A DNA stretch of 63,313 nucleotides, counting the filler, from Stramenopiles sp. TOSAG23-2 (Eukaryota), in NCBI GenBank assembly GCA_900128395.1. It is 9 parts of 9 records of this genome, joined end to end, with 100 filler letters (N's around TTAATTAATTAA, not from the genome) between each part and the next. Parts side by side here need not be neighbours in the genome. Positions count along the whole stretch, not along the records: positions 43,092 to 51,590 come from LT650198.1; 8 more parts are not named here. The stretch is one strand, 5' to 3'. Below, in pieces: positions 7,871 through 62,069 of this stretch; the stretch's first letter is position 1, and each line of letters begins with the position of its first letter. The position numbers and the translations under genes are program-made. Below the pieces are notes generated by a model, which saw only the letters and a list, made by a program, of their open reading frames with translations, had not been told where the DNA came from and did not search any database.

Positions 7871-8532
7871 TATTTCGCAAAGTTAGACTATGGATTCTAC
7901 AAACAATAGAAATAGTAGACAAAGTATAGCGTTGTCCAAGAAGTTAAGAAGTTTCCAAGATATATAAGAAAAAAGAAAAAAGAAGTGTCTAAGTCCTGGA
8001 AGTGTCGTAAACAAATATATTATTAATGCAACTGCTAAACGAATGTTCTATAAACTGTATTACCTATATTATTTCAAAATTATTTCATTTTTATAAAAAA
8101 TAATCATCTACTACATAATGTGTGTAAAAAAAGTACTTAAAATTTACTAACACTACTATTTTCGACTCCTATATCACCATAATATCAAATTAGTGGATTA
8201 CACTAAAAATCTCAAAAATGCCCGTTTGTGTCAGACGGGCATTAGCATTTTTGACAGCCCAAGGATTTTAATGCTGTGCAGTGTATATTTTGATGCAGTG
8301 ATTGATTTCATTGATTAATATAGTTATAGTTATTTATATAGCAATAGCATAGTGCTATTCTTGCTGTATGTGGTCAACAGATTTGCTCTCTCTTTTTTCA
8401 CTCCTTTCGATTTTTTCGATTTTTCGATTTTCGGCCTCTAACATTCCGTTTTTTACTCAACAGGGCATAGAAATTGGAATTAGAGTTAGAGGTTTTATCT
8501 TACCTAAGTATTATAATTTAATGCTGGTTAGT

Positions 8533-8632
8533 NNNNNNNNNNNNNNNNNNNNNNNNNNNNNNNNNNNNNNNNNNNNTTAATTAATTAANNNNNNNNNNNN
8601 NNNNNNNNNNNNNNNNNNNNNNNNNNNNNNNN
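8533..8632. other. Artificial contig spacer N44-TTAATTAATTAA-N44 (also at 17158-17257, 25772-25871, 34385-34484, 42992-43091, 51591-51690, 60190-60289, 61752-61851)
   Basis: An identical 100-nt spacer with stops in all six frames occurs 8 times. Contig lengths descend (8532, 8525, 8514, 8513, 8507, 8499, 8499, 1462, 1462). Confidence 0.99.
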
Positions 8633-11789: not shown

Positions 11790-14700
11790 TTATAAATCTC
11801 TGTGTCTTTCTCTTTGAAGTTTTTCCATTTTCTTTCGATTTGCAGCAAGCTCTTTTTGATAACGATCAGCATTTCGTGCATTATTTGCACCGATTTGGTG
11901 CATCTGCATTTGAAGTTGGGCCAACATTCGCTGGTTTGTTACATCAACATTCATCTGATTTTGCAATTCTACTTCCTTTTCTTTTAATTTTCGTTCTTTA
12001 TCTATACGCTTTTCTTCCCTTCGACGCCTTTCAGATACATCATAATAATTTGGACATAGACTTTCATTTGCACGGGTATGTCCCACCCGTCCACAATTCC
12101 CACATTTAGTTATTCTCTTCTTTTTTGCAGGTGCATTTTGAACATGTCTACCATTTCTACTAGCGTCACGCGATCTTTTTGCTTGATTACGGTTATAAGG
12201 AGATGTACTTGGTGTAAATGCAGTAGGTTGCCGATAATTATTGTTATTATTATTGTTGATATTGTTTCGATTATAATTGTTATCATTACTGTTGATATGA
12301 TTACCATAATTGTTGTTATTATTATTGTTCATATTGTCATGATACTGGATAGCATTTGGAGCTCTACTTGGTGTAAATGTAGGAGTAGATACCATCGATT
12401 TTTTTCTACCACTTGCTCCATTTGCCATATGATACCTTCTACGTTGCATTTCACGTACATCATCAAGCTGTTTCTTAATTGGATTTTTCGTATTACAGAT
12501 TTGACATAAATCTAAGTTTGCTGGATTACTCAATGTGCACATTGGACAATCCCAATCATTGGTACTACTTTTCTTTGATGAAATTCCTCCTCGTTTTTTG
12601 TTATTATTAGCCTTCTGTGATGTTAATGAAGATGATGATGTTGCATCATTTGTTATGGAATGAACAACTGTTGACTGCGGCGTGTTGCATAATTCACATA
12701 TTGTATTCATGTTGGTATTTTCAAATGTGCATTTTGTGCATACCCACTTGCTTGTTGCATTTTCTTGTTCTTGGCTTTCATCAAGCAATTCAATAATCGA
12801 GCTATTGCCTTTAACGCTAGTAATAATTTTACCACCTTTATTGTCTTCACCTTCATCAATGCTTTGATCTTGGCTTAACAAATCAATAATAGAATGCTCT
12901 TGATCATCAATGTCATTTGCACCATGGCTATTTTCTTGACTTTGACTTTCATCTAATAGACTAATTACTCTGCCAGTAACTGGAACATTCTTTTGTAATT
13001 TAACATTTTGAATAGCCTTGGTCTGTAATTGATCGTATTTGAAAAGTTCTTCATCATCAACACTTGATTCACTTTGTTTCTCATACATGCTCTTAGCTGC
13101 TGGGCTGTCGTTATTATTGCGGTGATGGCTACTACTGGTAGCATTACACATTTGACAATATGCATGTGCTTCATTTGCATCGGTTTTTTTCACGAATAAA
13201 CACCCCTTTTACAACTTGCAAATACAAGTTGTAAAAGCGAAAGATATACTTTGGCACCATTTTCATGGTCTCCATTCTTTGCTCGATGCCACGTTGTTGT
13301 AAATCATTCAAATATGGTGGATTTGTTGACTTCCAAATTTCTTGCATAGTTTTGCCAAAATTTTTTACAGCATCTTGAACACCATGTATTACAATATGTT
13401 CAGGAACTTGTTTAGCAAATCCACCACCAGTAACATCAACACTACTCCATTTTGACAAATACTCAGTTGCAGAATATGTAGTACATGGAAGACACTGCCC
13501 TTTGATGTACGGTGCAGTTTTTATATTCTTTTTCAATTCATCATATGTCAATCTTTGTTCTAAACATGCATCTACCTTTTCGAATTCTCCCAAGTTCTGT
13601 ACTATTTGTGTCAATTGGGTAAGCCATTGAATGCTGCCAGTAAAGTGTTCTGTTCTAATTACCATGAATCCATATTCAATTACAATACGATCGATAACTT
13701 TCTGTAATTCGTTAATATTAGTATCATGTCTTTGAGTTAATTGCTTGCAAGTTCTGCATAATTTTGCGTTCTTGCATGTGCAAGTAGGGCCTTCAACTAA
13801 TAACAATCGCCTTGATACTTTACTTGCAATCATCCTGCAGATTTGACAACGATTGCCACTACAAGATCCAAGTCTTTTACCAGGTTGTGCACAGTTAAAT
13901 CTTGATTTCTTCCTTGAATTTGGCATGAGACTGGCAGCTAAGTCATCCCAAGTTTTACGTTCAATTATTACTTGCTGGACATATTCTTTTTGAGATGATC
14001 TTGTAGTAGTAGTAGTAGTAGTTGTTGTTGTACCGCTACCATTATTACTAACATGATTATTATTTCTACGCCGCACAAATACATAATCTCCAACAGGCAA
14101 CTTCCTGGTTTCACAATTAATACCTCTTAATTGACAATGATTTCCAATGTTATTCTGATATTGCCTATCCTCAAACTCATCAACTAAAAGTACAAGTGAT
14201 TGTTCATCATCTCTCCAAACTTTTATTTTATGACTTAACGATGATGCTTGAACATATGATATACGCCTATATGAAAAGTGGGGAGCGCGTAGGGATGCAG
14301 AACATTGTTGCTCTAAGCCAGACTTCTTGTAATAATTATCATATGCTTTAAAAAAATCCATGCAACTTTTTCCAATTTTTGCACCATGATCAGTAAGCAA
14401 AAAACGCCTGTTTGCAAAATTAGTTTCACCAACATTTGTATGATCTACTTCAATGAGATTTTTTCGTAACATTTCGTTTGGATTGAAGGCAGAGAAATTT
14501 GTTGCATGCGCCACATTAAAAAGATCTGCACGACAAAATTTTTGTGCTTCAAATTTTAAATCATCTTCCGATATAGCTTGTCCTAATGAATTTGCTAATG
14601 CGCATAAAATTGCAAAAGGTCCACTTTGAAATTGTGGGACGTATGAAAGGGCGTTCCTGTTTTTTCTCACTTCTTTTTTTATAGTGGCATCAAGATCCTT

Positions 14701-16512
14701 CCACCTTGTTGGTTGATGATTTCTTCTTGCAGCAACCATGTGATTATCCCTAAAACAATTGTCGCAACATGGCTCCTTGAAGAAAGAACAATTTCCAACT
14801 AAACACATATGTGTAAATGCCTTTTCATTACAAAAAAGACACCTTTTTACGTATGATATATTTGGGACTATACTATTATTATTGTTATTCCTCACATGGT
14901 TCATATTCATCATCATCATATTGCCATTGCTATTATTATAATTACGATTGTTGCTGTTGCTCATCATATTGTTATTGTTGACATTGCTTGTAGATGCATG
15001 ATTTATTCTATCACTGTTATTGTTATTGTTATTAATATTACCAATATAGTTACCATTCATCATCATCATATTGCCATTGCTATTATTATAATTACGATTG
15101 TCGCTGTTGCTCATCATGTTGTTATTGTTGAAATTGCTTGTAGATACATGATTTATTCTATCACTGTTATTGTTATTGATATTACCAATATAGTTACCAT
15201 TCATCATCATCATATTGTCATTATTATTATTATATATGTTATTATTAAAATTGTGCATCGTATTATAATTATTATTATTATTACCATAGTTTGTGCTCAT
15301 CATATTGCCATTGTTATTATTATAATTATGATCATTGTTGCCATAATTATCATTACTGGTGTTATTCATCATAATATTATGATTAATGTAATTGTTATCA
15401 TGTGCTGAAGCGGCGCCATTTCCATTTGTCACACCTCCATTGTTATAATCATTTGCATTTCTGTGGTGGTTTCTTTGAATAGGTGTTATTGGATTGTTAT
15501 TCAATTGATCAATATGATTGCCATAATTTCCATCTACTTTCCAGTCATCACAAAAGCAAAACATACAAAACGCATTTCTAACATCTTGCTCAGATTGACA
15601 AGAAACACAACTTGCTGTACTGTAGCTATTGGTTGGTCCATTGGGTGTATTTGGGACAGTAACATTTGTACTATTAATATAATTGCTACTTGTTGCATAT
15701 CTTCTATCTCTGCTTCTGTTGCTGCCACTTCCATTATAATCATTGTTACTGCTACTCTGCCTGTTGTTGTTATTATCAAATGCCTGTGTAACCTTTTGCA
15801 TTTTAAGTTTGTGTGACTCTGATTTGGACTTTACAAAGAAGGTAATAGCATCGCGATGCTGATTTGATATTTGCAGCCAACTTTGATAATGTGCTTTGTA
15901 CATCCTCCAGAGTGTGGGTATCCTTTTACCATCATTTGTTTTTGGTTTGAAGGAACTTCGTGCTCTTCTATGCAACTTGTTACAACTTGAAATAAAATTG
16001 TACATTCCATTCATACTCTGAAATTCAGGAACATTGAAATGCTCAGTTGCATACCTTTTGCTCCTTTGAATTAAATTCTTGATTTGGCACATTGTGATCA
16101 TCCTTTGCTTTGTGCTTTCTTTATCCCAATTGGATGCACCACCACCAGCAATAGCATATTCACCAACAAACATACATATGTTATTTTCACTACGTTGTAC
16201 TTCAGGTATTTTTTCTATGACATTCATATCGTTTAAGACTGCTGTGCAGATTGCAGAAAACTCAGGATTACTGCATGTTTCCAATATATCACCATTGTGT
16301 ACACCACCTGCTGCCAATGTCTGTCCTGGTCTAAGCAAATTGCCATGTATATATATGCCATGATTATCATTTCTATCTAAGTATCTTAATAATACTTCAC
16401 CGACTGTGGTATTAGATTGCAATGGAGGTAAATTCACCAGTTTTCTTGGGTATGTCAATGCAACTGTTGGTCTCAACTTTAAATTGCTGATTTGTGTTGA
16501 GCCACGATGCAT
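11790..16512 (-). CDS. MUS81-like structure-specific endonuclease, split by a 1-nt frameshift in an A7 run (13184-13190): Ubl-like N-terminus, Asn/Met-rich LCR, B-box-like, winged helix, ERCC4, EME1-like ERCC4, SIMs, 2x RanBP2/NZF fingers, zinc knuckle, coiled coil
   Basis: MUS81 winged helix YVPQFQSGPFAILCAL..AQKFC..FLLTDHG. ERCC4 LLVD..LPVGDYVF..IIERKTWDDLAAS. ORFs 13171-16512 and 11790-13193 overlap and join as ..GVFIREKTDANEAHAY if one A is removed. WVCTKCTFEN, WDCPMCTLSN, CGNCGRVGHTR..CP. Confidence 0.75.
14900..15230 (-). repeat. Coding tandem repeat (about 2.3 copies of a roughly 150-bp unit) encoding NYNNSNGNMMMMNGNYIGNINNNN-SDRINH
   Basis: catcatcatcatattgccattgctattattataattacgattg recurs at about 14908 and 15058. 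Further partial copy at about 15190-15220. Confidence 0.85.
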
Positions 16513-17257
16513 GATTAGTTTCTATGTTGTACAAGTTTAATGTAATCTTTGTTCCTTTATAAAATGATACTATTCTTATAAATGAATCACATTTAGATCT
16601 ATATCTATCTATCTAGAATCTCTCTCTTGTATTTTTTTAATTTGTTTTTTAGTTTGTTTGTGATTTTATTTTAATTTATTATTATTTGTAGGCTAATGGT
16701 GGTATGTACATGCTAAAAAATCAAGATTATTTATCTTTTTTTTTTATTATATTTATTATTTATTTAACATCAAGGATCGCGCCAAATGGACATAGCTAAT
16801 AGTATCATAAGAATAGCACTATGAAAATGTCGAATGCGTTTTATGATAGCTACCATGATACAGGTACCTCAGTATGGCACATTGTTGAGCTGCTTGAGTA
16901 TTATAATAAATAGCATCAGTATGCACGTTAACGTATGATATATTAATATTATTTATAGCAGGCCACAGCAGGCTGGCTGGGCTGGCAGGCCCAGTCTGTG
17001 CATTAATTACTTCCGATAAATTTAGCGCTACACAGCACTAAAAACAAGATTTCAGGTGAAAATATTTATCGGAAGTTCCAAACTGACAATTATTGTATAT
17101 AATAATTTTATAAAATACAAAATATCCGAATAATTTATGATATAATTTATATCTAATNNNNNNNNNNNNNNNNNNNNNNNNNNNNNNNNNNNNNNNNNNN
17201 NTTAATTAATTAANNNNNNNNNNNNNNNNNNNNNNNNNNNNNNNNNNNNNNNNNNNN

Positions 17258-24495: not shown

Positions 24496-25871
24496 AAAAA
24501 TTGTTCCTTTACTTTGTCTATGGTAAGACTTTTTTAGGCCGTCACAGCACTATTTTGTCCACATTTTACCTGCTATTGCAGCCTAATTAGTGGCGACAAA
24601 GCGCTAATGGTACTTTTCATATACTAATTATCAGCTTTTCCTATTTATTTTTTTCGATTAATTTTAGTGAACCCTTTGAACTTTGTATAAGGGAAAATGA
24701 ACAATGAAATCTATAATTTAAATTTTTTGATATGTTATTTAATGCTATTTAAATTTATATGTTATTTATATGCTAATTCTAGGAGATAGGTAGAAAATAC
24801 AATTGGTATATATGAATATGATATACTTGAAAGGAAATAAACTATAAATAAAGGAAAACCTTAGGTACAGAAAACACATGATAAAGCTAGACATTATAAA
24901 AATTTGACACCCATTTACACTTCAGTGAGCAAGGGAAGACGAGGCGTTTAGTGAAGGGATCGAGTAAGACAGAGGGATCTATCCAGGGATTTTGAAGCTT
25001 CTTTAAAATAATATAAGTGCTTTTCTGCTCCTCCTCCTGGAGGCTTTGCCAGTTTGCATATACCTTCTTTTTTTTTTTTCTTTTTTTTATGAAAAGAAGA
25101 AGAAACAACGTGCAAGAACTTTTTTAAATAATATAATAAATAAATAAAAATAATAATATAAAATTAAACTCTATATAGTACTTGTCATACACAACAACAT
25201 CCATACACAACAACGCTCATTCTGAAACAATTACACACTATGGCTTCAAAGCAAAAACAGTGTTGTATATGTGGAGCATGTACAGTTCAGGAAAATATAT
25301 TGGTAAAACAAGTATATAAAAACTAGGTATTGCATTATTAAGTTCCAGCTGCCGCACAGACGGCAAGGACCCCTGCCTTCGAGATAAAAATTAAGTGTTA
25401 TCAGGAAGTTATTTTGCCTATATAAAATTGTATTCTTTAAGTGAAGTACAGATTTGGTTGGTATGTGTCGATTGGTGGCGATGTTGTATAGTTACAATGA
25501 GGGTTCAGAATATATACTTTTTGGTATATACTATTGACACCAATGTTATGCCTTGTAAATGAGACGGCAGATCTCAAAATTTAAAACGTCGGGTTGGTGA
25601 TTTAGTATGGGAATAACAGGTGTTATAATTTAGTGCTGTGTATATGCTATTATGAGGAGAAGAGAAGGAAAATGATGAAGGAGTAGCAGTAAAAAAGTTA
25701 ATGCCTGTATTATTATTACACTAGGGGCAATAATTAAAATTCTGAAGTAGGTGTAGTTTTTAATGCTTCGANNNNNNNNNNNNNNNNNNNNNNNNNNNNN
25801 NNNNNNNNNNNNNNNTTAATTAATTAANNNNNNNNNNNNNNNNNNNNNNNNNNNNNNNNNNNNNNNNNNNN

Positions 25872-29348: not shown

Positions 29349-32273
29349 ATGGCTTCAATAGATGTTGAGAAGATGGATTTGACGCATCTGCCGTCAAAAA
29401 TGGCACTGGAAATGTTTATGCGCACACCTGGCAACAACCAAAGAGCCATTGTTGATAGACTTCACCATTTAGCACACCACGCAAGAAGCGTTCATAATAA
29501 TGCATATCATGATCCAGTAGACGGGGACGAAAATTTGCGAGAACAGGAACCAAATACTAAATCTATTGTTCCTAAAAGAGCACATACGGCGCATTTTTGG
29601 CGAGATCATCATGTATTTGCCGAGTTAGACTGCTATAGAAATCAAGAATGGGTTCATACACATAGATGGAACCACGGTTTAGAAGAACAAGTACTACAAC
29701 GTATTTTAAAAAAAGATGATATTTTTAAAAATTTAAACACCCGGAAGATCGCTCCAGAAGGTGTAGTTGAGAAAAGTGGTGTTAAAATTAGACGAAGAAG
29801 TAGCTTTTTTGCTAAGAATTCTAGCAATTTTGATGCCTCTCGATGGGGCAAACCACACTTGCCTCAAGTTAGCGTATATGGTCTGGAACACATTGTTCAC
29901 CATCTGTCAAATCATCACATTATGTTAAACGTCCACGGTCTTACCTTTGCAAGTGTTGTTGAAAATATTATTGATACTGCTGTTAGTCGTAAAATTTTTC
30001 CAAAGAAAGCTAGAGATGAAGCTGTAAGAATGATTTGTGGCAATGAGCGGCGAGATAAGCAAGAAACTAGAGATGGCGTTAGCCCATGGGGAAAACACAA
30101 ACTAAAAATGTTAAAATTTGCGGAAGATAAAAAGAATAAGGAACTTCGAAGCAAACAGATTAAACATGATGTTATAGAACAGGATGTAACCGAAGAAGCT
30201 ATGTTAATTAAAGTCGCTGAAAGTGATATTATGAGATACCAAGATGTGCACGATAATATGTTGGATGATTTTGATTCCGATCATAGAATTATATTGTTTG
30301 CTAGGTTAGAGTACGCCGTTAATGTTGGCATGGATTTGCACGATGCGCGTTTTTTGGTAATTGTTCTTGGCGTCGATAAGTCTCAATCAAGACAATTAAA
30401 TATCGAAATAGGCGCATCCTTTGCAGCTTTAATGCAAGATGAAAATATTTGCGAAGCTGCATATAGCGCTATTGATCCCCCATCATTTCGTGAAGCTCTG
30501 GAAAGGGGTGTGCGTACCATCAAAATGGTACCAAAAATCCATCGTCCAACGAAACAAGGTATTAAGAAACGCGAAATACGAATGGGAAGAGAATTATTAT
30601 CTAAACTTGCACAAGAAAGTTCCCACTGGGCAAAATGGGAAAAGCGGCAACATATTAAACATAAATGCGAGACGTTTCCAGAGGTAATTGAAACTGCAAC
30701 TGTCTATGCATTGCCATTAATGTTTGGTATAATTATTGCGTTGTTTTGGGCAAACGTAGAGCCAACATCGTATTCGCGTATATTTGGTGCCGGTCATCAC
30801 GATGAGCATGCTAGTAGTACTGCTAGTAGCAGCATTAATGCATCACAAGCTACTCGAATGAGAAGGATGCTCTCCTCTTCGTCATCTTCTGCATGTGATG
30901 CAAAGACACCAACAATTTTGAATTTGCATTATAAACATGATGTTACCATAAATTTTGTAGTAAATGATATTTTTATGTGTTTCTTTTTCGGTTTAGCAGT
31001 CAAAGAAATTACAGAGGCATTATCAGTTGGTGGTAGTATGTATCCACCTCAAGAAAAGGCTATAAATCCATTATTAGGAACCTTCGGGGGGGTCTTCGGT
31101 CCAATAGTTTTTTACGTTATCTTCACTGTAATGTTTTATGAAGCTGACATGTATCCAGCATATTTAGAATTTAGCGACGTTATGAATGGTTGGGGAATAC
31201 CAACTGCGACAGATATATCATTAGCATGGGTAACAGCATTTTTTGTTTTTGGAAAAGGTCATCCGGCAATATTATATTTATTATTATTAGCCATCGTAGA
31301 TGATGGGCTCGGGTTGCTTATAATTGCATTTGCATATCCAGACAAGTCCCAGACTCCGAATTATGTATATCTAGTTCTTATCTTAATCGCAATGTTAATT
31401 TCGTATACATTTCGAAAACTAAATTTCACTAGCTGGAAACTGTATGTGATGATTGCGGGTCCATTTGCCTGGTTTGGTTTAATGGAAGCGTCACTTCATC
31501 CTGCTTTAGCATTGTGCTTCGTCGTCCCATTTATGCCTGGAGAAATTCATCATGGTGATCATGGGAAAGAGCAAGAACCTGAAGATGAACATGAAGAGGA
31601 AGAGCATAGTCATCATCATGCACCTTTACATGCTTTTGAACACGATTTGAAACCATTTGTTGATATTTTTGTCATGTTTTCTTTTGGTATTGTAAATGGT
31701 GGAGTACAAATGAAATATGTTGGTCCGATGACAATAACTATATTTGCAAGCTTAGTCCTTGGTAAAACCGTTGGTGTAGGCGTTATGAGTATAATTGGGA
31801 AACAAATTGGTTATCCTCCACCACCGGGTATCGGTACAAGAGAAGGTTTTATGGTTGGTTTTATTGCTTCTATTGGTCTTACAGTTGCCCTTTTTGTATC
31901 TGGTGTAGCCTTTCCATCATTTCCGCTACTTGAGGGGGAAGCTAAAATGGGTTCCTTACTATCCATCTTTTCAGCTGCTATTGCAATTGTATTAAGTAAA
32001 ACCGTTTGCAAATTTTCTTTGCCTAAAGAGAGCGGCGAAAAGCAAGGGCAAAGCATAAATGTTGATATAGATAGCGAAAGTGACGATGAAGCAGTCGATG
32101 AGATTTTAGTTTCAGCTCAATTAAGTACATTAAATTCGGTTGAAAAGAGTAAAAAGAAAGTTGAAAACTTGACAGGTATCAGGGAACTTGAATATGCAAA
32201 ACAAGAAGGTTTTTTAGGGCATGAGACGGATAAACAGAAAGTAACAACTGAAGTAACAACTGTTGATGATTAA
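29349..32273 (+). CDS. nhaA: Fusion protein: SLC4/Band-3 cytoplasmic domain + NhaA-type Na+/H+ antiporter
   Basis: N-terminal HVFAELD..W..T.RW..LEE, RWGKPHLPQVS, FARLEYAV..ARFLVIVLG..EIGASFAALMQDE. C-terminal ALFWAN, VNDIFM.FFF, GWGIPTATDIS, LLAIVDD, HPAL, NGGV, LGKTVG, IGLTVALF. Confidence 0.88.
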   Translation: MASIDVEKMDLTHLPSKMALEMFMRTPGNNQRAIVDRLHHLAHHARSVHNNAYHDPVDGDENLREQEPNTKSIVPKRAHTAHFWRDHHVFAELDCYRNQEWVHTHRWNHGLEEQVLQRILKKDDIFKNLNTRKIAPEGVVEKSGVKIRRRSSFFAKNSSNFDASRWGKPHLPQVSVYGLEHIVHHLSNHHIMLNVHGLTFASVVENIIDTAVSRKIFPKKARDEAVRMICGNERRDKQETRDGVSPWGKHKLKMLKFAEDKKNKELRSKQIKHDVIEQDVTEEAMLIKVAESDIMRYQDVHDNMLDDFDSDHRIILFARLEYAVNVGMDLHDARFLVIVLGVDKSQSRQLNIEIGASFAALMQDENICEAAYSAIDPPSFREALERGVRTIKMVPKIHRPTKQGIKKREIRMGRELLSKLAQESSHWAKWEKRQHIKHKCETFPEVIETATVYALPLMFGIIIALFWANVEPTSYSRIFGAGHHDEHASSTASSSINASQATRMRRMLSSSSSSACDAKTPTILNLHYKHDVTINFVVNDIFMCFFFGLAVKEITEALSVGGSMYPPQEKAINPLLGTFGGVFGPIVFYVIFTVMFYEADMYPAYLEFSDVMNGWGIPTATDISLAWVTAFFVFGKGHPAILYLLLLAIVDDGLGLLIIAFAYPDKSQTPNYVYLVLILIAMLISYTFRKLNFTSWKLYVMIAGPFAWFGLMEASLHPALALCFVVPFMPGEIHHGDHGKEQEPEDEHEEEEHSHHHAPLHAFEHDLKPFVDIFVMFSFGIVNGGVQMKYVGPMTITIFASLVLGKTVGVGVMSIIGKQIGYPPPPGIGTREGFMVGFIASIGLTVALFVSGVAFPSFPLLEGEAKMGSLLSIFSAAIAIVLSKTVCKFSLPKESGEKQGQSINVDIDSESDDEAVDEILVSAQLSTLNSVEKSKKKVENLTGIRELEYAKQEGFLGHETDKQKVTTEVTTVDD

Positions 32274-34128: not shown

Positions 34129-34484
34129 CTTTTTCTTCTTAAGTATATATATATATATATATATACAACAACGTAATTATTTGTTCTCTCTTGTTTTTGT
34201 TGGTTATTTTTCTTCACGTACATGAACTTTTTTTTGTTGCTATAATATTATTTATTTGTTGCGCAGTTCATCAAGTGTTCAAGTGCACAAGTCCTAAAGG
34301 ATTATTAGTAAGTGGATTTCAAAATGGTTGTTAATTTAAGTACTAATGTAGTATACTAATTTATGCATATTTGATAGAGAGATANNNNNNNNNNNNNNNN
34401 NNNNNNNNNNNNNNNNNNNNNNNNNNNNTTAATTAATTAANNNNNNNNNNNNNNNNNNNNNNNNNNNNNNNNNNNNNNNNNNNN

Positions 34485-38167: not shown

Positions 38168-40633
38168 ATGTATTTCATTTTATCCATTCTAGTTTTATTA
38201 TCTTCTGACTTTTTTCGCCAATTCTTGGAAGAAGTAATTGGTGTGAATTTCGTACCTTATATGGTTGATAATCCAATGCTTTTATTATTCATATTTATTA
38301 GTGTAAGTTCTTTCACTTATATATTGATAAAAGTCATTCAACAAAAAATATCCAAAAATATGATGAAAAAGGATGATGCTGAACAAGAACGTATGATGAA
38401 TACTGAACATTGCATATTAGTCGATGAAAATGACAATATTATTGGGCATGATTCAAAGAAAAATTGTCATCTAATGACTAATGGTTTGAAATTACATCGC
38501 GCATTTAGTGTCTTCCTATTTGATTCGAAAAAAAGGTTGCTATTGCAAAAACGTTCGCTTGATAAAATAACATTTCCCAACTATTGGGCTAATACGTGTT
38601 GTTCCCACCCTTTACACGTTGATGGAGAAACGGATGGTGTAAATGGTGTGAAAAATGCAGCAAGGCGCAAATTGGAACAGGAGCTAGGGATAACGCCCGA
38701 TCAAATTCCACTGGATAGTATGACATTTGTTACACGGGTACATTATCGAGCAAGCTGCGACAATAAGAAATGGGGGGAACATGAAATTGATTACATTATA
38801 ATTTGTCAACCACCAAAAGACGTTGTGATGAAGTTAAATCCAAATGAAGTATCAGAAGCAAGGTATTTCACTGAAAACGAGTTAATTGAGTTTATGGAAA
38901 ATGGAAACAAAACTACGTATGGTTCTGATTTAATTTCTCCATGGTTTTGCATTATACAAAATGCATTTCTGCATAAATGGTGGAAGAAAATATTGACAAA
39001 TAAATCTGTCATCGATGAAACAGATCGTTTAAAAATTTATCGTGGTGAAATGGAAAAAATACCAATGATCTGTAAGAAGAACGAGAAGCAACAACCGTTT
39101 GATCCATCAAAAAAACAAGGAAGTTATGGCAAAGTGAAAATACATAAACATTCCATATTTGCACAATTATTGCATCCATTGGAGATTGCAGCAGCGGTAC
39201 GTTACAAATTGAAAAGTAAACGAAGAGGACTGTTATGTGAATCTGCACCAAAAAATGCAAGGCAAGAAGATATTATATTTTGTGAAGATATTTTATCAAG
39301 TGTTTCGAGAAGTTTTGCAGGGGTTATTAAAGAATTACCACCATGCCTACGATTGCCAGTAGCCTTGTTTTACCTTGTATTACGTGCGTTGGATACTGTT
39401 GAAGATGAAATGGATTTAACGCGCTTTGAACCGTATGTTACGGATGAAATTCAAGACACATATGATGTAAAAATCAATATGTTGCTTCACTTCCACGAAC
39501 GGTTAATGGAAAATATCCCATTATCAAAATGCACGTCAACAGGAATTGGAGAAGGTGATGAGAGAAAACTAGTGGAAGAATTTGACAAAGTAAATCGCGT
39601 ATTTAATACCTTAAGCATTGAACAACAAAATGTCATTGCTGATATTACAAAACGTATGGCAAAAGGAATGTCTGATTTTGCTGGTAGAGATTTAGCAGCT
39701 GGTACCAAAAACCGTACAGAATTTGATTTGTATTGCCACTATGTTGCTGGTCTAGTTGGTGAAGGATTGACGCGTCAATTTGTTGCATGTGGTTTGGAAG
39801 ATAAATCTATCAAAAATGCAAAAGGTATGCAATTGGCTAACTCCATGGGGTTGTTCTTACAAAAAACAAATATTACCCGCGATTATTTGGAAGATCTAGT
39901 CGACAATCGATCCTTTTATCCTGCGGATGTATGGTCTCTATATCATAAATCACTGCCGGATTTACGACATGGTGATGATAAAGCAATTCAATGTGTGAAT
40001 CATATTATCACAGACACGTTGGAACATTCGCAAGATTGTTTATCATATTTGGATCAATTGCGCGATAAAGATGTATTTCGCTTCTGTGCAATTCCACAAA
40101 TCATGGCAATTGCTACGCTGTCTGAATGTTACAACAATCGTAAAATTTTCACGGGTGTATTAAAAATCCGTAAAGGTTTAGCAGCACGTATGATACAAGA
40201 TTGTGATAATATGAAAAGTGTGAAAAAATGGTTTGCAAAATTTGCATCGAAAATTATGAATAGTGTTGAGCGTGATGATCCAAATGCTAAACGGACGATT
40301 GAATATTGCCTAGATTTAGGTGCAAAAAAATATATGGTACCAAATAAGATGTTATTCACGATGAATATATTTGCAGTTGTCTTAGGCATATTTCTAGGCA
40401 GTCGTGTTTACCACAATCGTATTGTTGGTGGTAAAAACAATGGCAAAAATTTTATGCCAAAACTTACAGATACAATGGAAGTTGCTGAATTGGGAACGTT
40501 ATTTGTAGTTATCATTTATTTACTAGGTTTTAGCGGCGTGGTTGTTGCTGCAAACCTTTTAAATAGCAACAATGATGCCACTAGTAGCTTTGGTCGAAGC
40601 AATGCATTAAAAAGCAAAAAAAAGAAATTATAA
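38168..40633 (+). CDS. IDISQS: Isopentenyl-diphosphate isomerase / squalene synthase fusion (IDI-SQS)
   Basis: IDI: LHRAFSVFLF, NTCCSHP, WGEHEIDY. SQS: VSRSFA, YLVLRALDTVEDEM, YCHYVAGLVGEGL, MGLFLQKTNITRDYLEDL, FCAIPQIMAIATL. C-terminal TM segments. Confidence 0.95.
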   Translation: MYFILSILVLLSSDFFRQFLEEVIGVNFVPYMVDNPMLLLFIFISVSSFTYILIKVIQQKISKNMMKKDDAEQERMMNTEHCILVDENDNIIGHDSKKNCHLMTNGLKLHRAFSVFLFDSKKRLLLQKRSLDKITFPNYWANTCCSHPLHVDGETDGVNGVKNAARRKLEQELGITPDQIPLDSMTFVTRVHYRASCDNKKWGEHEIDYIIICQPPKDVVMKLNPNEVSEARYFTENELIEFMENGNKTTYGSDLISPWFCIIQNAFLHKWWKKILTNKSVIDETDRLKIYRGEMEKIPMICKKNEKQQPFDPSKKQGSYGKVKIHKHSIFAQLLHPLEIAAAVRYKLKSKRRGLLCESAPKNARQEDIIFCEDILSSVSRSFAGVIKELPPCLRLPVALFYLVLRALDTVEDEMDLTRFEPYVTDEIQDTYDVKINMLLHFHERLMENIPLSKCTSTGIGEGDERKLVEEFDKVNRVFNTLSIEQQNVIADITKRMAKGMSDFAGRDLAAGTKNRTEFDLYCHYVAGLVGEGLTRQFVACGLEDKSIKNAKGMQLANSMGLFLQKTNITRDYLEDLVDNRSFYPADVWSLYHKSLPDLRHGDDKAIQCVNHIITDTLEHSQDCLSYLDQLRDKDVFRFCAIPQIMAIATLSECYNNRKIFTGVLKIRKGLAARMIQDCDNMKSVKKWFAKFASKIMNSVERDDPNAKRTIEYCLDLGAKKYMVPNKMLFTMNIFAVVLGIFLGSRVYHNRIVGGKNNGKNFMPKLTDTMEVAELGTLFVVIIYLLGFSGVVVAANLLNSNNDATSSFGRSNALKSKKKKL

Positions 40634-42991: not shown

Positions 42992-43091
42992 NNNNNNNNN
43001 NNNNNNNNNNNNNNNNNNNNNNNNNNNNNNNNNNNTTAATTAATTAANNNNNNNNNNNNNNNNNNNNNNNNNNNNNNNNNNNNNNNNNNNN

Positions 43092-43970: not shown

Positions 43971-46411
43971 ATGAAAAAGAAAAGGAAAGAAAACTTACAC
44001 CATTACAAAAACATGGGAAAATTACAACAAATATGTTCATTAATACTTGCAGCGATGTTTTTTATTTTAGGTTGTTATAATTATTTCACCGCATGGCATG
44101 GTAATTATTATAATAATCATGCTAATAATATTAATAATTATTATAATTTTTTGGTAAAAACAAAAATAAAAACGAGGAATAATAAGAAACAACAAACCTT
44201 ACGTAAACGAAAACGTGGTTTACATCCACATCCACATATGGAAAATTTTGTATCAACAACGACAACAAAAACTACAAATATTAAAAGTCATCGTATAGAA
44301 GAAGAAAATAAAAAAAGCAATAACAACAACAACAACAACAAATGGAAAGGTAAAATAGCTCATTATGGTAATGTTCCACTACAAGGATACGATATTCAAT
44401 ACAAAATGGAATTATTTATTGATAACTTCATAATAGAAACAATGTCCGATAATGTAGAATTTGTTAATTCACAAAAAATACGTGAATCAAAAGTAGTATT
44501 AAAATTAGAACATCCATGGGAACGTAGTACTGGTTTTTTAAATTATGCAACTGTTATAGAAGATGAACGTGATGGTAGTTTATTGATGTATTATCGATGT
44601 TATGCATATAGACTTGGTATTGATAAAAAACCAACAACAGCAACAAAAGCTTATATGTTAGATCGAAATTATTGTGTTGCTAAAAGTACAGATGGTGGCA
44701 TGACATTTATAAAACCTGAATTAGAATATTATACATGGGGTGCTGATAATAGAAAAACAAATATTATTGGTATAGAATTCGATGCATTTACACCAATATA
44801 TGATAATCGTCCAAATATATTAGAAAATGAACGATTTAAATCATGTGGTTCACATCGTCAAAATATTTGGAATATGTATGCATCACCAGATGGTTTAAAT
44901 TGGCATATCGTAAAAAAACAAATTGTAGATACACGTAATGTTATAAAGAAAAAAAAAGGTTTAATATATGCATATGATTCTACGATGAATTTAATATATG
45001 ATGATGTTGGAAAACGATTTTCATTATTTACACGTGGGGTGAAAAAATGGACTCAACGTACAGTCATGTCTGGCATTGCACAAAAACCTTCTTCTTCTGC
45101 TGATCTTAATAATGATTGGGCTACGTTTATTGATGAAGCAGATCAAACAAAACCAAGTGCAAATTTTGAATTAATTAAAATTCATCCACCATTTGAACCA
45201 TTTGAAGGATTATATAGTACGTTTCCACAAAAAGGTATTGGTGGTTCCAATGATAAATATACACAACATTTATGGTTTATGGCAGCTACAAGATACCATG
45301 GCGGGCGGTTATTTGTAAGTATAATATACATACATACATATATAAAGAAAACTTGAAAATAATAATAAATACTGCATTATATATATATACAAAAAACACG
45401 TTTGCTAACACACAAAATATTTTTTTTCAATATACATACACAAAAAAATTATATATCCTCTATCTATCTATGTATATATATATATACCAGCCGTTATGCC
45501 CAAACAAAAATATTTCAAAAAAAAATTATATACCATCATATTGTGAACTTGGTTTAACAGATGTTCAATTTCTATTTTCAAGGGATTCTCCATATAAATC
45601 CTCAATCGATAAACGGGGTATGGATTGGAGTCGACCTGTTGTAACTATGCCAATTGCAGATTTTGGTTCCCCTCATGATATTGTAACGAAAGATGATATA
45701 CATATTCGGCATTTTGAGCAAAGACGCACATGGGCAGTTGGTGGCATTCATCGTATACGAAATCAAGATGATTTTCAATTTTTTGTTTTACATAATTCAT
45801 GGTTACCATCTGTACATATTAAAAGATATGTTATGCCTCAATATAGATTTGGTGCCATTGCATGTAAAACAAGCTATAAAGGCCATGGTGGGGAAAAAGA
45901 AAAAATTTGTAATGTTGTTACAAAACCGATACATCTACATTTAGATGGTAGCCATAAAGATATAATATTAAACGTAAGAGTCACATCTATTTTTGGATAT
46001 GTTCAAGTTGGTATAAAAGATGCATTATGTCATGGACATAAAGATGATCAATGCAGAATAATACGAAATACAAATCATGGAATAAATGCTGACCAAAATA
46101 AAAAATTATCTAATGCATTTGGATATTTTACATTAGGTACGAATGAACGTATTATAAATGATGTTGTAAATAAAAAAGTAGAATATCAATGGTACGGGGC
46201 ACCAAAATGGTGGGATAAAAGAACATTTATTCAGAAAAATGGTAAAGAAGTTGAAAATATTGAAAGAAACACACAAAAACGGTATGGTCTATTACGTTTA
46301 GCAAAGTTATTGCGTAATATATTTCCAAAAGAAACCGGGAAAGATACATATCCAATTCAATTGACTTTTAATTTAAAAGATGCAGAGATATATGGTTTTC
46401 GATTTGAATAG
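43971..46411 (+). CDS. Type II membrane glycoside hydrolase-like five-bladed beta-propeller protein; exons 43971-45314 and 45491-46411 (754 aa)
   Basis: N-terminal TM. ELFIDNF, EHPWE, Y.TVI.D..G...MYYR, A.STDGG..F.KPEL, SPDGLNW, DVQ..FSRD, LNV..G.V.V, F.L.DA.IY.F.F. Phase-0 intron 45315-45490 (gtaagt..gctaac..ccag). Confidence 0.75.
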
Positions 46412-48106: not shown

Positions 48107-51100
48107 TTACCTCCCTCCTTGATACAAATCAACGACTTCTTTACTAGTAGTAGCATTTTCAACGTTTTTATCATCACGTTCGCGAATTAAACGCGGAAAA
48201 CGCAATGCAACGCCTTTCTCATGACCAGTAAGATCTATCCCAGATGATACAAATCAACGACTTCTTTACTAGTAGTAGCATTTTCAACGTTTTTATCATC
48301 ACGTTCGCGAATTAAACGCGGAAAACGCAATGCAACGCCTTTCTCATGACCAGTAAGATCTATCCCAGATGTATGAACTGGTGATAATGATAATTCAGCA
48401 CCTTTTATTTCCCATACCACACTTGGTTTGAACCAAACATCGGGTATAGGTGTTGAACTACTTTCATGGAAACTATAATTCTCTGGAATCGTACTATTAG
48501 TTTGTGTTTGTAAATCTTCTTCGTTCTTTTCCTCTTGATCATCATGTTGATCATCGGCATCGTTTACCAACACTTCAAACGAATCATAAATGGATTTTAA
48601 TAGATCATCTGTAAAACCAGTACCAATTTTACATACCGTTTCATATTGATCATTCTCTGGGTTATACGATGCACATAAAAACGAACCATATACTTCATTT
48701 CGTTTACCTTTTCCTTTCCATGCTCCAATCGGTACAAGATCTAATGTATCTCCAAACCCATCGATATAATCATTTTTCAATTTTAACCATTTCGATGAAC
48801 GTTTGGATGGATTATATGTTGAGTGTAAATCTTTTAACATCAATCCTTCACAATTATTATTCACAGCATCTGTGATATATTGTTGCACAATAGATATAGC
48901 ATCGTCGTTGTCGTCGTGATTACTAGTATGAATTACTTCATTTATATCATCCGTATCATCATTATTCCCAATCTCTAAACAAACATGTTGTGATACTGAT
49001 GTCATAAATTTTCCATCAATATTTGTAAAATTACTTTCCAATATATTTCGTCTTTCTAAATATGTTTTATCTAACAATGATTCTCCATTATAATACAATA
49101 AATCAAATCCAATTGTTAATACTTGAATTGAAATATTGTCTTCTACAACGTTTTTACGTTGTCGTTTTGATAATGTTTGAAATGGTAATATTTCATTGGT
49201 ATTTACATCATATGCTACAATTTCACAATCCATTATGAATGATTTCGTCATCATTTTCATATTGTTATTGCTGTTGTTGTTGTTGTTGTTATCCATCCAT
49301 TCATTAGTATTTACATTATTTTTTATAAATGAAACAATATCAGGAAATCGACTTGTTGTATTTTCAAGATTACGTGAAAATAATTGTATATTAAATTTTG
49401 CATCATTGTCATCATCATCAACATTTATTATATCTGAGGTATCCTTTGTAAACATATGTAGTTGACATCTTTCACCATCATATTTATATTCACATGCAAA
49501 TTGTAATTTTTTATTATTAGTACTACCAGTAGTAGTAGTGGTGGTAGTAGTGATGGTACTACTTTCTGCTTCCACGTTTTCTTCTTCTTCGTTTTCAATA
49601 CTGGATATACCACTTTTACCATGTTGATTAGTTAAAATATCAATTGCATTTGTAATATTATGTGCTGGTCGAGATAACATTGGTTGTAATGGAATTCCAG
49701 GTCGTATGGAACATCGTTTTTCAACATTATCTATTGACATATGTATATTCCTATTTTCCATTAATGTTGATTCATTAACTAATGCTGGTATTAATATATC
49801 AAAACTTGGTGTTTTTGCAAATGCACTTTTTATAATTGATTGTGCATAATTAATTTCTTCTTGCAATTTTACATTTTTTCTTTTCCATTCTTTTTTTTCT
49901 TCACCATCTTCTATCTCTTCAATAATATTTATATTGTTAACATCTTCATAGTCCTCGTCGTCTTGATGTTCTTTTGATATCAAAACAAATGATTTTGCTA
50001 ATGCCATTAATATACTTTTATCTGCAACACCCATACGTAATTTACCTTCTAAACATCGTATTAAAAATTTAGCATCCATTTCATTCGAACATTGTTGTAA
50101 TAAATTGGCAATCATTGTTATTTTCAATGCTTGTGAATTTTTTCCAGTAGTCGTTGATATCGTTTGAAATGTTCGAAATACATCATTTATCGATAATACT
50201 GATATTGATGTATTTGTTTCAGTATTATATTTTTTAAATAATATCATAGCAACTTTTCCTAATTCTCCTTCAATTTTAAACATTTCATTGATTTCATCCA
50301 TATTGTCATCAATACATGTATGGTATGCTTCATAAATTGCTTTTTTAATCAAACCATTACCAACACCAGTTTCAATATTTTTAAATTGTGGTGCTAATTT
50401 ATTACATGTTAAATACACAATTTGTAATAAATTATCCGAAGGTAATGTATTATTATTGGATAGATTATTATCATTTTTCCAAACTCGTATGAAAAATGTT
50501 GATAATGTATTTACAATATCTAAACGACTATTTAATAATTCAATTTTATGAAATATATTTGTTAATTCGTTATATGGTATACTTGTACAACGATGCTCAT
50601 CTCGTTTTCGTTTACTTCCTGTTAAAAATGCTAATTGAAAATCTTTACTTAAATCGTTTGAAATTTCTTTTGTTGTAAAAATTTGACGGCCAGGTTGAAT
50701 TGCATTTCGTATTTTTGTATCAATATCTTCTTTGAAATATTCACATGTTTTAATTATATTTGATGTTTCAAATGCAATACCCCAGAGATACGTTTTATAA
50801 TCTAATTCTTCTTTTTGCATTTTTTCATTTAATTTCTTTTCATCAGGGCCAAATATTTCTAATAATAGACCACCATCATTACAGTAATAAAATAACTGTT
50901 CCGTACCTGGATATGATGATTTTGTAGATGCTAATATTAAACCAAAATCTTCTAATTCTTTTTTTACAAGGTTATTATTATTTGTACGAATAACTAAATG
51001 ATCGACTCTACTTACATGATTTGAATGAAGTATCATAGGTGGTGGTGATATTGTTGAATACAATTTTTCCTTTAATGGATCTATTTTGTAATTGAATAAT

Positions 51101-51540
51101 TTATTGTTGTTTGCATTATTGTCGTATTGATTTGTTATATCATACCAACTTAAACTGTGAATTGGCGAGGGTTCGTTATTATTATTATTATTATTATTTT
51201 GAATGTCATTATTATTATTCGTCTCATTATTGATAATTATTTGTAAATTTCCACAATTGATTATGTTATCATTGTTTACATGAAATCCAGCTTTTTGCCA
51301 TGCTTTTACATTGCTATTGATGGTTAGAAATAATAATTCCGGTTTGTTTGTATGGTTTGCTAAGTTTAAATAGTTTGAAAATGCGGTGGTTGGTTTGTTG
51401 CTTTTATTTGAGGATGATAATTTCCTACATTTTAAATGGTTAAATTTGGTAATTGGGGATTTGTGAAGATGATATTTTGAAAATGTTATGACGGATTGTG
51501 AAAGGAATCTATGGCGGTGTATATATTGTTGGAGATGCAT
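48107..51540 (-). CDS. DNA ligase I-family (Cdc9-like) enzyme with N-terminal glyoxalase/VOC-like domain and probable mitochondrial presequence; true stop probably at 48107-48109 after collapsing a 125-bp duplication
   Basis: FLIRCLEGKLRMG, PLQPMLS, CEYKYDGERCQLH, FSRNLEN, FDLLYYNG, EGLMLK, KWLKLKNDY, DLVPIGAW.G.GKR, CKIGTGF, LRFPR.IR.RDDK. N-terminal HSNHVSRVDHLVIRT..LLEIFGP..LWGIAF..AIQPGRQI. Confidence 0.9.
48121..48370 (+). repeat. Exact 125-bp tandem duplication at the ligase 3' end (likely assembly artefact)
   Basis: 48121-48245 is identical to 48246-48370; it changes the terminus from DLYQGGR* to DLYHLG*. Confidence 0.95.
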
Positions 51541-51794
51541 GATGTGGGACGTGGGTTGGGGGGGAAATTGGAAATGTTTTACGTATATATNNNNNNNNNN
51601 NNNNNNNNNNNNNNNNNNNNNNNNNNNNNNNNNNTTAATTAATTAANNNNNNNNNNNNNNNNNNNNNNNNNNNNNNNNNNNNNNNNNNNNATAAGAATCA
51701 CCATATTCAAGAGAAATTTAGCGATTTTTTAAAGAATTATCCTGGTTAGCCATATAGGTTAGCAGCAAAAACCGCTTTCAATTTCTGATACATG

Positions 51795-52276: not shown

Positions 52277-53350
52277 CTAACATCTTTTAATCCAATGTAT
52301 TAGCGGTTTGCCTAACGTCTCTTCCCATCCGCTGTCAATGGCACAGTGCGCTTGTTTGGGCACACGCAACAGCTCAGCCCCAATGTAATGTGTGAGAAGC
52401 CAATTGGTGTGGGGTTCTGGGTAACACCGGTCATCTTCAAACTGTACAACAAGCAGTCGCTCTATACTGCCTAATCTATTGGGGACTTCTTTTCGACCCC
52501 ATTTGTATACGTTTGATACGTAAGTCGGCCATCCATCAGCAGGTCTCGCTCGAAGAAGTCGGAGATAATTTTGTATGGAAATGACCTTCCCTGTCACAGA
52601 AACCTCCGAAGTCTCAAAGTGGGCAAACATGGCTTGGAGTGCCACCACATCACCTGGAGGAGGGCTCATGGTAAGCACCATTCGCAAGTACGGTAGCCAT
52701 CCCGCACTGGAGACGACGGAGGAACGAACGCTTGACGCTGTCAGGTCCACAAGATCTTTTTGACCAAGGGCACCTGTTCCGAGAAGCACTGCGCCACAAA
52801 TAGGTGGGAGACTGGTGCTTGGCACTGTATGAAGTAAGTCCTGAAGAATGAGCCCACCTTGCGAGTGACCCACGAGCACGAGGCGTTTGCCCTGTGGCAA
52901 CGATGCCAGCGCCCCTGCGACGTCTTTCACGTGTTGGTCCAAACCTACCGTCAGGCCCGAGTTCAACGTTACAGCGTATGAACCGATGCCCTCGTCGGCC
53001 AACTTCTTTTGCAAGTCACGAAAATACCATGCACCGTGCCACATTCCATGTACAAAAACCACAGAGAGGCCTGGAGTTTCTGCCCCTTCTTTCCCCTTTG
53101 CTGCTGAAGTGCGTGCCCTTGGAAACACTTGGACAGCTGAGAGGGGACCAAGCCGAACACTACGTTCCCGGTCTACCGACTCGTGCAATACGAACGTCTT
53201 GAGGAGGTCCGAGGTCTCGTCCATAACTTTAGGTCGGCGAAGAAAATACCACAGCGCAGCTGCCGCAACTGCCGTCGCTGTTGCTGTCATAGCCGAAACG
53301 GGAAATCGGTGTTGTGAAAAAGGGAGTGCGTCTAGATTTAGTAAAGCCAT
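52277..53350 (-). CDS. Alpha/beta hydrolase (GxSxG esterase/lipase type) with N-terminal membrane anchor; GC-rich
   Basis: VFVHGMWHGAWYF, LVGHSQGG, EDDR and QAH catalytic triad candidates. Confidence 0.88.
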   Translation of the reverse strand: MALLNLDALPFSQHRFPVSAMTATATAVAAAALWYFLRRPKVMDETSDLLKTFVLHESVDRERSVRLGPLSAVQVFPRARTSAAKGKEGAETPGLSVVFVHGMWHGAWYFRDLQKKLADEGIGSYAVTLNSGLTVGLDQHVKDVAGALASLPQGKRLVLVGHSQGGLILQDLLHTVPSTSLPPICGAVLLGTGALGQKDLVDLTASSVRSSVVSSAGWLPYLRMVLTMSPPPGDVVALQAMFAHFETSEVSVTGKVISIQNYLRLLRARPADGWPTYVSNVYKWGRKEVPNRLGSIERLLVVQFEDDRCYPEPHTNWLLTHYIGAELLRVPKQAHCAIDSGWEETLGKPLIHWIKRC

Positions 53351-60007: not shown

Positions 60008-60289
60008 CCACCCGTAAAATGACCTCCGCGCAGTTGTTTTAGACAAAAAAATACACGGTAAACGCACGATGTATTATTATAGAAACATCGAGATACAAAT
60101 ACAGAAAGAAAAGGAAGAAGAAGTAGATTATTGAAAGGAAAAAAATAAAGAAAGAAATATATAATACGAAATAAAAAATAATCTCATTTNNNNNNNNNNN
60201 NNNNNNNNNNNNNNNNNNNNNNNNNNNNNNNNNTTAATTAATTAANNNNNNNNNNNNNNNNNNNNNNNNNNNNNNNNNNNNNNNNNNNN

Positions 60290-61751: not shown

Positions 61752-62069
61752 NNNNNNNNNNNNNNNNNNNNNNNNNNNNNNNNNNNNNNNNNNNNTTAAT
61801 TAATTAANNNNNNNNNNNNNNNNNNNNNNNNNNNNNNNNNNNNNNNNNNNNTCAGTATTATTATCAGGTATGATTTTGCTCGCAAATAGAAAAAGTGCGA
61901 GAGTGAATATATCTCTGCAAATATACTAGTATTATAATATATGATAATACTTTTGGTAAATATATGTATTATCCTCTCTCCATATTATTTTTTCTTAAAT
62001 TTTATTTACAAAAAAAACATTTCACTCGCTCTCCTTCCCTGGTTTAAATATCTTGGTGTGCGAATTTTT

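Follow-up and report, generated by a model that had tools for sequence, protein, structure and literature searches.

The stretch of DNA analysed here (63,313 nucleotides from the AT-rich protist Stramenopiles sp. TOSAG23-2, GenBank assembly GCA_900128395.1; hereafter the window) carries a gene in which a domain resembling the vicinal oxygen chelate (VOC) superfamily is joined in frame to an ATP-dependent DNA ligase of the Lig1 type. The gene lies on the minus strand of the contig at 43092-51590 and is one uninterrupted open reading frame (ORF), from an ATG at 51540 to a TAG at 48235. Its product of 1101 residues (P0001) consists, in this order, of an acid-free basic N-terminus, a VOC-like domain of 240 residues, a linker of 12 residues and the ligase. 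Taken together, the data make it probable that this is a single-exon bifunctional gene, encoding an organellar, PCNA-independent Lig1-type ligase with a captured VOC protein. The features of P0001 are the following.

51385..51540, minus strand: presequence-like N-terminus, residues 1-52, acid-free, delimited by composition.
51361..51384, minus strand: motif AFSNYLNL, residues 53-60, from the alignment of fused, closest and free-standing proteins.
50614-51339, minus strand: VOC-like domain, residues 68-309, from model, Foldseek and homologues.
51073..51339, minus strand: N-terminal half of the VOC-like domain, residues 68-156, with the W81..G85-F86 signature and the model strands and helices at query residues 8-96.
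51166-51228, minus strand: asparagine-rich insert, residues 105-125, inside that N-terminal half.
50614..51027, minus strand: C-terminal half of the VOC-like domain, residues 172-309, with H172-x-N174, D180-H181, Q215-x-F217, E228, W253-G254 and Q282-x-G-R285.
50578..50613, minus strand: linker SKRKRDEHRCTS, residues 310-321 (12 residues), from the last VOC strand to the ligase DNA-binding domain (DBD), from the alignment.
49996..50577, minus strand: DBD, residues 322-515 (PF04675 DNA_ligase_A_N, E 5.4e-31).
48775..49515, minus strand: adenylation (nucleotidyltransferase) domain, residues 676-922 (PF01068 DNA_ligase_A_M, E 1.5e-40).
49483-49485, minus strand: motif I lysine K686, within the adenylation domain.
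48292..48699, minus strand: OB-fold domain, residues 948-1083 (PF04679 DNA_ligase_A_C, E 6.2e-18), with motif VI LRFPRLIRERDDK.

The three Pfam domains of the ligase half stand in the order DBD-adenylation-OB, all well above their cut-offs, and the NCBIfam model TIGR00574 (dnl1) gives 379 bits (cut-off 218). With the patterns that we take to be those of the nucleotidyltransferase motifs, P0001 has each of motifs I, III, IIIa, IV, V and VI (KYDGER at residue 686, FIMDCEIV at 768, FDLLY at 812, EGLMLK at 898, WLKLK at 918 and LRFPRLIRERDDK at 1071). Of the solved structures, human LIG1 ranks first (E 1e-95), well before LIG3 (5e-32) and LIG4 (1e-22). Judged by domains and motifs, the ligase half is a complete Lig1-type ATP-dependent DNA ligase, as had been claimed in an earlier note on this DNA, made from the sequence, which described an intact DBD-adenylation-OB ligase with KYDGER.

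The same note had placed a VOC-like domain in front of the ligase, at 50616-51340, practically the span found here. Residues 61-320 of P0001 (260 residues) were used as query in an exhaustive HMMER search, with representatives taken at 50% clustering. The search returned 90 homologues at E<=1e-3 (10 at E<=1e-10), nearly all of them free-standing proteins of 200-280 residues; one of 240 residues (P0006) aligns end to end with E 7.9e-16. The domain was aligned with 54 homologues (alignment A1, 55 rows), and Pfam recognizes Glyoxalase_4 in 21 of the 55 rows, Glyoxalase_3 in 13 and Glyoxalase in 8. An AlphaFold2 model built on this alignment reached a pLDDT of 84.5 and a pTM of 0.85, and is of low confidence only in the asparagine-rich insert (pLDDT <50 at query residues 54-58) and in the last five query residues. 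When the model was compared with the PDB by Foldseek, 262 structures matched at E<=1e-3; all those listed were VOC proteins, with sequence identities of 7-13%. The best was 4-hydroxyphenylpyruvate dioxygenase (HPPD; 1cjx_A, E 2.2e-10, TM 0.54 by query); hydroxymandelate synthases also appeared, as did methylmalonyl-CoA epimerase (6bu2_B, TM 0.61 by target). The language-model neighbours in the ESM Atlas, which holds only clusters of at least 50 members, were VOC clusters of Actinomycetota at 0.92-0.94, with a query recognition value below the level of strong evidence. On the strength of the model, the N-terminal domain is a two-barrel, HPPD-like VOC fold made of paired beta-alpha-beta-beta-beta modules, and the fold proposed from the sequence finds support in the model with its Foldseek matches, in the Pfam glyoxalase matches of the homologues and in the language-model neighbours alike. 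Two other signals were set aside: a DUF5889 match in residues 1-320 (E 0.077) was judged noise, and phmmer, run with the domain on the sequences of the PDB, yielded matches at chance level only, such as spermine synthase (E 0.063).

The alignment shows the free-standing homologues stopping at the point from which the fused proteins go on into a short linker and the DBD. In P0001 the frame is continuous across the 12 residues of SKRKRDEHRCTS, and the GC content on the two sides of the junction is equal (0.277 and 0.288). The fusion recurs. A search of long proteins found two others with the N-terminal domain and all three ligase domains, namely P0002 (99% identity) and P0003 (1001 residues), the latter being 47% identical over 95% of the VOC domain and also 47% identical in the ligase half. 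A search of short proteins added three more: P0213 (407 residues, 47%), in which the VOC domain is followed by the beginning of the DBD, up to the point at which the frame breaks off; P0005, an incomplete model from the species of the window, which crosses the junction; and P0212 (316 residues), with 57% identity over 98% of the query. P0002 and P0005 represent independent assemblies, 95-99% identical. The possibility that P0002, which starts at Met170, represents an alternative isoform was discarded; this start would halve the VOC fold and is more likely an effect of gene calling.

It is conceivable that the fusion is an artefact, that is, a chimera formed during amplification or assembly, or a read-through of adjacent genes. 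The assembly is fragmentary, with contigs of ~8.5 kb joined by spacers, the gene has 125 nt duplicated exactly, in tandem, at its 3' end, and P0212 and P0004 stop at the junction. However, P0003 and P0213, at 47% identity, have this very junction, as have P0002 and P0005, the frame is continuous with equal base composition on both sides, and P0212 is the sister of the window VOC domain (support 92), nested inside a fused clade with a support of 100 in the VOC tree. Its conservation in several species shows that the fusion is no chimera and no pair of mis-joined genes, and we regard an artefactual origin as extremely unlikely. The stop of P0212, whose contig measures 1264 nt, is more simply explained by an intron or by the contig end than by fission, since P0212 is nested within the fused clade, although a free-standing gene could be present there. 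The in-frame fusion claimed in the earlier note therefore stands, together with its occurrence in related species, and the multiple displacement amplification chimera that the note had named as a danger is not what the junction represents.

The ligase half was placed in an unrooted tree of the best-scoring and the named matches (40 of the 120 listed). Among the matches listed, the closest ligases after P0002 and P0003 are P0094 (658 residues) and P0095 (695 residues), with 37% identity, the remaining ones being at most 35% identical to P0001. P0001 and P0003 form a clade with P0094 and P0095, with a support of 100 in the SH-like approximate likelihood ratio test (SH-aLRT; 40 rows). This clade stands apart from 36 LIG1 proteins of fungi, animals, oomycetes, diatoms, red algae, heteroloboseans, Physarum and Guillardia; in a careful search on 24 rows it was recovered, apart from 20 other LIG1s, with ultrafast bootstrap and SH-aLRT values of 100/100. 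The ligase half thus appears, from this unrooted tree, to be a paralogue-like lineage distinct from canonical LIG1, either old or fast-evolving, which agrees with the paralogue proposed at the outset. P0094 and P0095 start with short presequence-like leaders directly before the DBD (MSVNSARLFATETPSRPRG... and MLQRLLQFSARRGLPRARAMVFRSL..., respectively), and are candidate dedicated organellar ligases of other protists.

Among its first 40 residues, the leader of P0001 counts 0 Asp/Glu, 8 Arg/Lys and 6 His, and acidic residues begin only at position 68, so that the basic, acid-free N-terminus noticed earlier is real. The leaders of P0213, P0003 (from Met28) and P0095 are rich in arginine (6, 6 and 7 Arg, respectively, in the first 40 residues), with acidic residues appearing from 34-35 onwards. 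Downstream of the leader, the AFSNYLNL motif (FSKYLxL) is conserved only in the fused and the closest proteins and is absent from the free-standing homologues. Met1 is a plausible start for P0001, because the first Met of the homologues lies at a comparable distance before the shared FSxYLxL motif. As for the PIP box, which had been reported missing, the PIP-like motif Q..[ILMV]..[FYW][FYWL] has no match anywhere in P0001; of 116 other LIG1 hits, 55 carry it within their first 60 residues. These features are best read as pointing to an organelle, probably the mitochondrion.

A protein of the nucleus or of another organelle such as the plastid, that is, a main or specialised nuclear ligase and not a mitochondrial one, would be suggested by the atypical, His-rich leader and by the KRKR contained in the linker. 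A nuclear localisation signal at the KRKR was rejected, in that this stretch is not conserved in P0003, P0213 and P0212. The orthologues and the sister ligases, moreover, have Arg-rich, acid-poor leaders directly before their folded domains, and the PIP-like motif is lacking, so a nuclear or plastid location seems to us unlikely.

The residues that define the VOC family were counted in an alignment of 90 rows, which left out P0004, P0005, P0071 and the 910-residue P0085. At every column conserved in at least 75% of the rows, P0001 has the majority residue. The numbers of rows conserving each residue are W81 84, G85 84, F86 85, H172 82, N174 89, D180 88, H181 84, V183 90, F217 89, E228 90, W253 84, G254 90, A280 88, Q282 89 and R285 85. 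All the VOC motifs quoted in the earlier note are present, and each corresponds to a conserved column of the family. The family profile gives a weak match (E 0.0038) to the methylmalonyl-CoA epimerase 6xbs_A. In this weak alignment, D180-H181 fall on the DH of the epimerase and E228 on Q/E ligand positions, H181 and E228 thus occupying what we take to be metal-binding positions of that enzyme, and the invariant W253-G254 stand where the epimerase has His-His. The family seems to keep half of the classical metal site and to add the polar residues H172, N174, Q282 and R285. Classical glyoxalase I activity is doubtful, because the four-ligand metal site looks incomplete. A functional pocket is still compatible with this, as the free-standing members share the same residue pattern.

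The apparently incomplete metal site could also mean that the VOC domain has lost its enzymatic function on being fused, and is an oligomerisation module, or a module for docking to the nucleoid or the replisome, which replaces the PIP box. VOC proteins commonly oligomerise, and the absence of a PIP-like motif would fit. However, the incomplete site is a property of the whole family, free-standing members included, and the fused copies keep all the conserved residues; constraint on these should be relaxed in a mere scaffold, and their retention therefore counts against a purely structural module, to which we would give only a small chance.

The relatives of the VOC domain in prokaryotes were sought by scanning bacterial and archaeal genomes with P0044. 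Nine loci were found, 7 of them near full-length, all in metagenome-assembled genomes (MAGs) of Actinomycetota (Acidimicrobiia, Thermoleophilia and Actinomyces). The VOC tree (98 rows) is divided by a split with support 96: the 7 Actinomycetota loci are in one half (41 rows), the fused clade in the other (57 rows). The half with the fused clade also holds most of the proteins with basic, presequence-like extensions of 15-40 residues, the N-extended homologues being P0026, P0033, P0038, P0042, P0043, P0052, P0053, P0062, P0069 and P0083. These sequences suggest that a eukaryotic, organelle-targeted free-standing form of the VOC protein exists and was the fusion partner. The term 'bacterial-like', used for the domain in the earlier note, calls for a qualification: homologues occur in Actinomycetota, but the fused domain itself belongs to the half of the tree without any verified bacterial locus.

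As to the bacterial gene context, 67 ORFs were computed across the loci, and the 42 nearest to the match were scanned. Two loci with the same gene order (L002 and L005) have an SDR gene downstream and an MFS transporter gene upstream of the VOC homologue. No neighbour gene is common to the other loci, and no ligase or Ku gene was found nearby in the 7 actinobacterial loci. Since no neighbours are shared across loci, the genome context is uninformative on the function of the VOC protein. In one of the 7 loci (L006, an Actinomyces MAG) a gene for an AlkZ-like DNA glycosylase (7825-9174, minus strand) is located ~2 kb from the VOC homologue (5123-5797).

A more far-reaching possibility is that the VOC domain is directed to DNA, either recognising or processing damaged termini or lesions that bear vicinal oxygens or aldehydes, such as 3'-phosphoglycolate, a 3'-unsaturated aldehyde or 5'-deoxyribose phosphate, or clearing DNA-reactive dicarbonyls at the nucleoid, and hands a clean nick to the ligase of the same chain. 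The arrangement would recall bacterial LigD, which brings end-processing domains of its own. Several facts agree with such a role: the fusion is conserved, the linker is 12 residues long and the two halves have diverged equally between P0001 and P0003 (47% identity each); the conserved polar pocket residues are all retained; the usual recruitment motif of the ligase is lost; and one actinobacterial homologue has the AlkZ-like gene nearby. However, no result bears on the substrate, the loci show no consistent DNA-repair neighbourhood, with neither ligase nor Ku and the AlkZ-like gene at one locus of 7, and none of the papers listed from open PMC and bioRxiv dealt with such a link; we also know of no VOC enzyme that acts on nucleic acid. 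A DNA-directed VOC domain is thus rather improbable, and that it would be the first nucleic-acid-directed member of its superfamily, readying oxidised or aldehydic DNA termini for the ligase of the same chain, is more improbable still.

The preferred reading remains the organellar, PCNA-independent ligase with a captured VOC protein, constraint acting on both halves, and it should be noted that a number of observations weigh against it. The ATG of P0001 is 50 nt from the contig end, with 48 in-frame nucleotides upstream and no stop among them, so that the start is formally open. The leader is rich in His and has only 3 Arg, its amphipathicity in a crude score (0.45) is lower than the median of the 116 other LIG1 hits (0.515), and 11 of those 116 likewise have no Asp or Glu in their first 40 residues. 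The proposal of a mitochondrial protein is thus favoured by the acid-free basic leader of P0001 and the Arg-rich leaders of the orthologues but not by the amphipathicity, and is only plausible. In the ligase tree, which has no outgroup, two rows of the clade are of deviant composition, and the clade could be a long-branch effect. For the VOC half, Pfam and NCBIfam scans of residues 1-320 of P0001 recognized no family (for the domain, 0 Pfam families at E<=10), and the sole sequence-level link to a solved VOC enzyme is the weak epimerase match, in which half of the canonical metal site seems to be absent. P0212 and the similar fragment P0004, both from a third species and nearest to the domain of all its relatives, end a few residues after it. 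Finally, a eukaryotic origin of the N-extended VOC proteins is indicated by sequence features only, and for P0042 the Atlas gave only actinobacterial clusters.

With these points in mind, we infer the compartment, the activities of the two halves and their coupling as follows. A targeting-peptide-like leader and a complete two-barrel VOC protein would have replaced the PCNA-binding, low-complexity N-terminal region of the ligase. The ligase half would most likely seal nicks in organellar, probably mitochondrial, DNA without PCNA, because it belongs to a lineage of short, leader-bearing Lig1 relatives. The fused VOC domain presumably keeps the job of the free-standing protein, because it retains every family-conserved residue, and would most likely bind or turn over a small molecule at a predicted pocket formed by H172, N174, D180-H181, E228, Q282 and R285, possibly with a metal. 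The fusion would then have joined two proteins of the same compartment, which would be co-expressed and held together by the 12-residue linker.

The window is composed of nine contigs (8532, 8525, 8514, 8513, 8507, 8499, 8499, 1462 and 1462 nt) separated by eight spacers of the form N44-TTAATTAATTAA-N44, at 8533-8632, 17158-17257, 25772-25871, 34385-34484, 42992-43091, 51591-51690, 60190-60289 and 61752-61851. Gene neighbourhood across any spacer is therefore without meaning. In particular, the spacer at 51591-51690 marks the end of the contig of the VOC-ligase gene, and the sequence above 51590, including the hydrolase gene at 52277-53350, is unlinked to it.

The duplication at the 3' end of the gene consists of two exact copies of 125 nt in tandem, over the last codons of the ORF.

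48120-48244 and 48245-48369: exact tandem duplication, 125 nt, two copies.

The duplication shifts the frame, so that the protein of 1101 residues ends in ...VVDLYHLG at the TAG of 48235-48237. If one copy is removed, the stop is the TAA at 48107-48109, and the protein has 1102 residues and ends in ...VVDLYQGGR. P0002, 99% identical and from an independent assembly, ends in ...VVDLYRGGR, as in the reading without the duplication and not as in the shifted ...DLYHLG. The duplication probably either was introduced by the assembly or arose very recently, and in both cases it alters just the last few residues. Of the span first given for the gene, 48107..51540, the upper end is correct, whereas 48107 is not the end as assembled, and becomes the stop only if one copy of the duplication is ignored.

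On the ligase contig, two overlapping ORFs of the same strand without a Pfam match (43971-45356 and 45272-46411, both plus) may together form a single gene that a frameshift or a short intron interrupts. Elsewhere in the window, two further unusual fusions are each encoded in a single ORF: a NUDIX domain with a squalene/phytoene synthase (38168-40633, plus), and a Band 3 cytoplasmic domain with an NhaA-type Na+/H+ antiporter (29349-32273, plus). An ERCC4-nuclease ORF (13171-16512, minus) of 1113 residues, 15% of them Asn, and an ORF of 2493 residues with ANF-receptor and ephrin-receptor-like domains (389-7870, minus) are both uninterrupted, so the genome looks intron-poor. The alpha/beta-hydrolase ORF at 52277-53350 (minus) has a GC content of 0.52, and of 0.49 at third codon positions; for the remaining 21 ORFs the ranges are 0.27-0.38 and 0.15-0.31. 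Its product is poor in Asn and rich in Ala, and an AT-rich WW/LRR gene lies on the same contig; the ORF could be a transferred gene or part of a chimeric contig. Rfam and tRNA scans of the window gave no match.

The VOC-ligase represents a new domain architecture of a known enzyme. A full-text search of the open PMC and bioRxiv literature, judged from titles and abstract openings, did not find this fusion, and a literature search with the Pfam model name returned nothing on function. To our knowledge, the identity of the organellar ligase has been established in only a few groups of eukaryotes. What emerges here is a dedicated Lig1-derived lineage with presequence-like leaders, one branch of which captured a whole VOC protein. 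In one jakobid, the candidate mitochondrial replication proteins described in PMC7050145 (consulted in part) include an ATP-dependent DNA ligase. Where a family is uncharacterised, a conserved fusion is one of the few hints at what it does, and this one ties an unstudied VOC family (90 representatives) to the sealing of DNA nicks, or at least to the same compartment. If the VOC half acted on DNA damage, the chemistry of its superfamily would be extended, some protists would have a self-contained organellar enzyme for the repair of single-strand breaks, and the free-standing homologues of Actinomycetota and of other eukaryotes would turn out to be DNA-repair factors so far overlooked. In any case, the VOC-ligase is a concrete and testable protein.

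In comparison with known systems, the predicted fold of the N-terminal domain is the paired-module two-barrel fold of HPPD, hydroxymandelate synthase and methylmalonyl-CoA epimerase. According to the weak alignment, a His at the start of the first strand and a Glu in the fourth strand of one module would be at metal-ligand positions. The domain is shorter than HPPD-type proteins (~240 residues instead of 330-390), shares only 7-13% identity with them, and, unlike the epimerase, has an invariant Trp-Gly in place of His-His in its second module; its family has a signature of its own, composed of HxN, DH, Q.F, E, WG and Q.GR. The proteins of Actinomycetota annotated as 'VOC family protein' (PF13669, PF13468, PF00903) are true homologues, collinear over the whole domain with 25-35% identity. 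They are, however, free-standing (200-260 residues), and the copy in P0001 reaches no Pfam model.

Bacterial LigD, in which a ligase is combined with a polymerase and a phosphoesterase, also carries another enzyme domain on the ligase chain, but this is an analogy only: the ligase subfamily and the accessory folds are different, LigD is without a DBD, and the NCBIfam LigD models scored on P0001 far below their cut-offs, so that P0001 is no member of that family. Eukaryotic LIG1 (human LIG1, yeast Cdc9/Cdc17) has the same DBD-adenylation-OB core and the same six motifs. P0001 differs from it in having a leader and a VOC domain instead of the low-complexity N-terminal region with its PIP-like motif, and in falling outside the clade of the other sampled LIG1s (36 in the larger tree, 20 in the smaller), to which it is 31-35% identical.

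The mitochondrial forms of yeast Cdc9 and of plant LIG1 are made with a presequence from an upstream start. These proteins and the mitochondrial isoform of vertebrate LIG3 are ATP-dependent, nuclear-type ligases with an N-terminal leader, as is proposed for P0001. LIG3 is described as the only mitochondrial ligase in mammals (PMC4538836, consulted in part); its zinc finger and BRCT domain are absent from P0001, as judged by Pfam. In contrast to all these organellar ligases, P0001 apparently belongs to a dedicated gene lineage and is not an isoform, and it carries an additional, enzyme-like domain.

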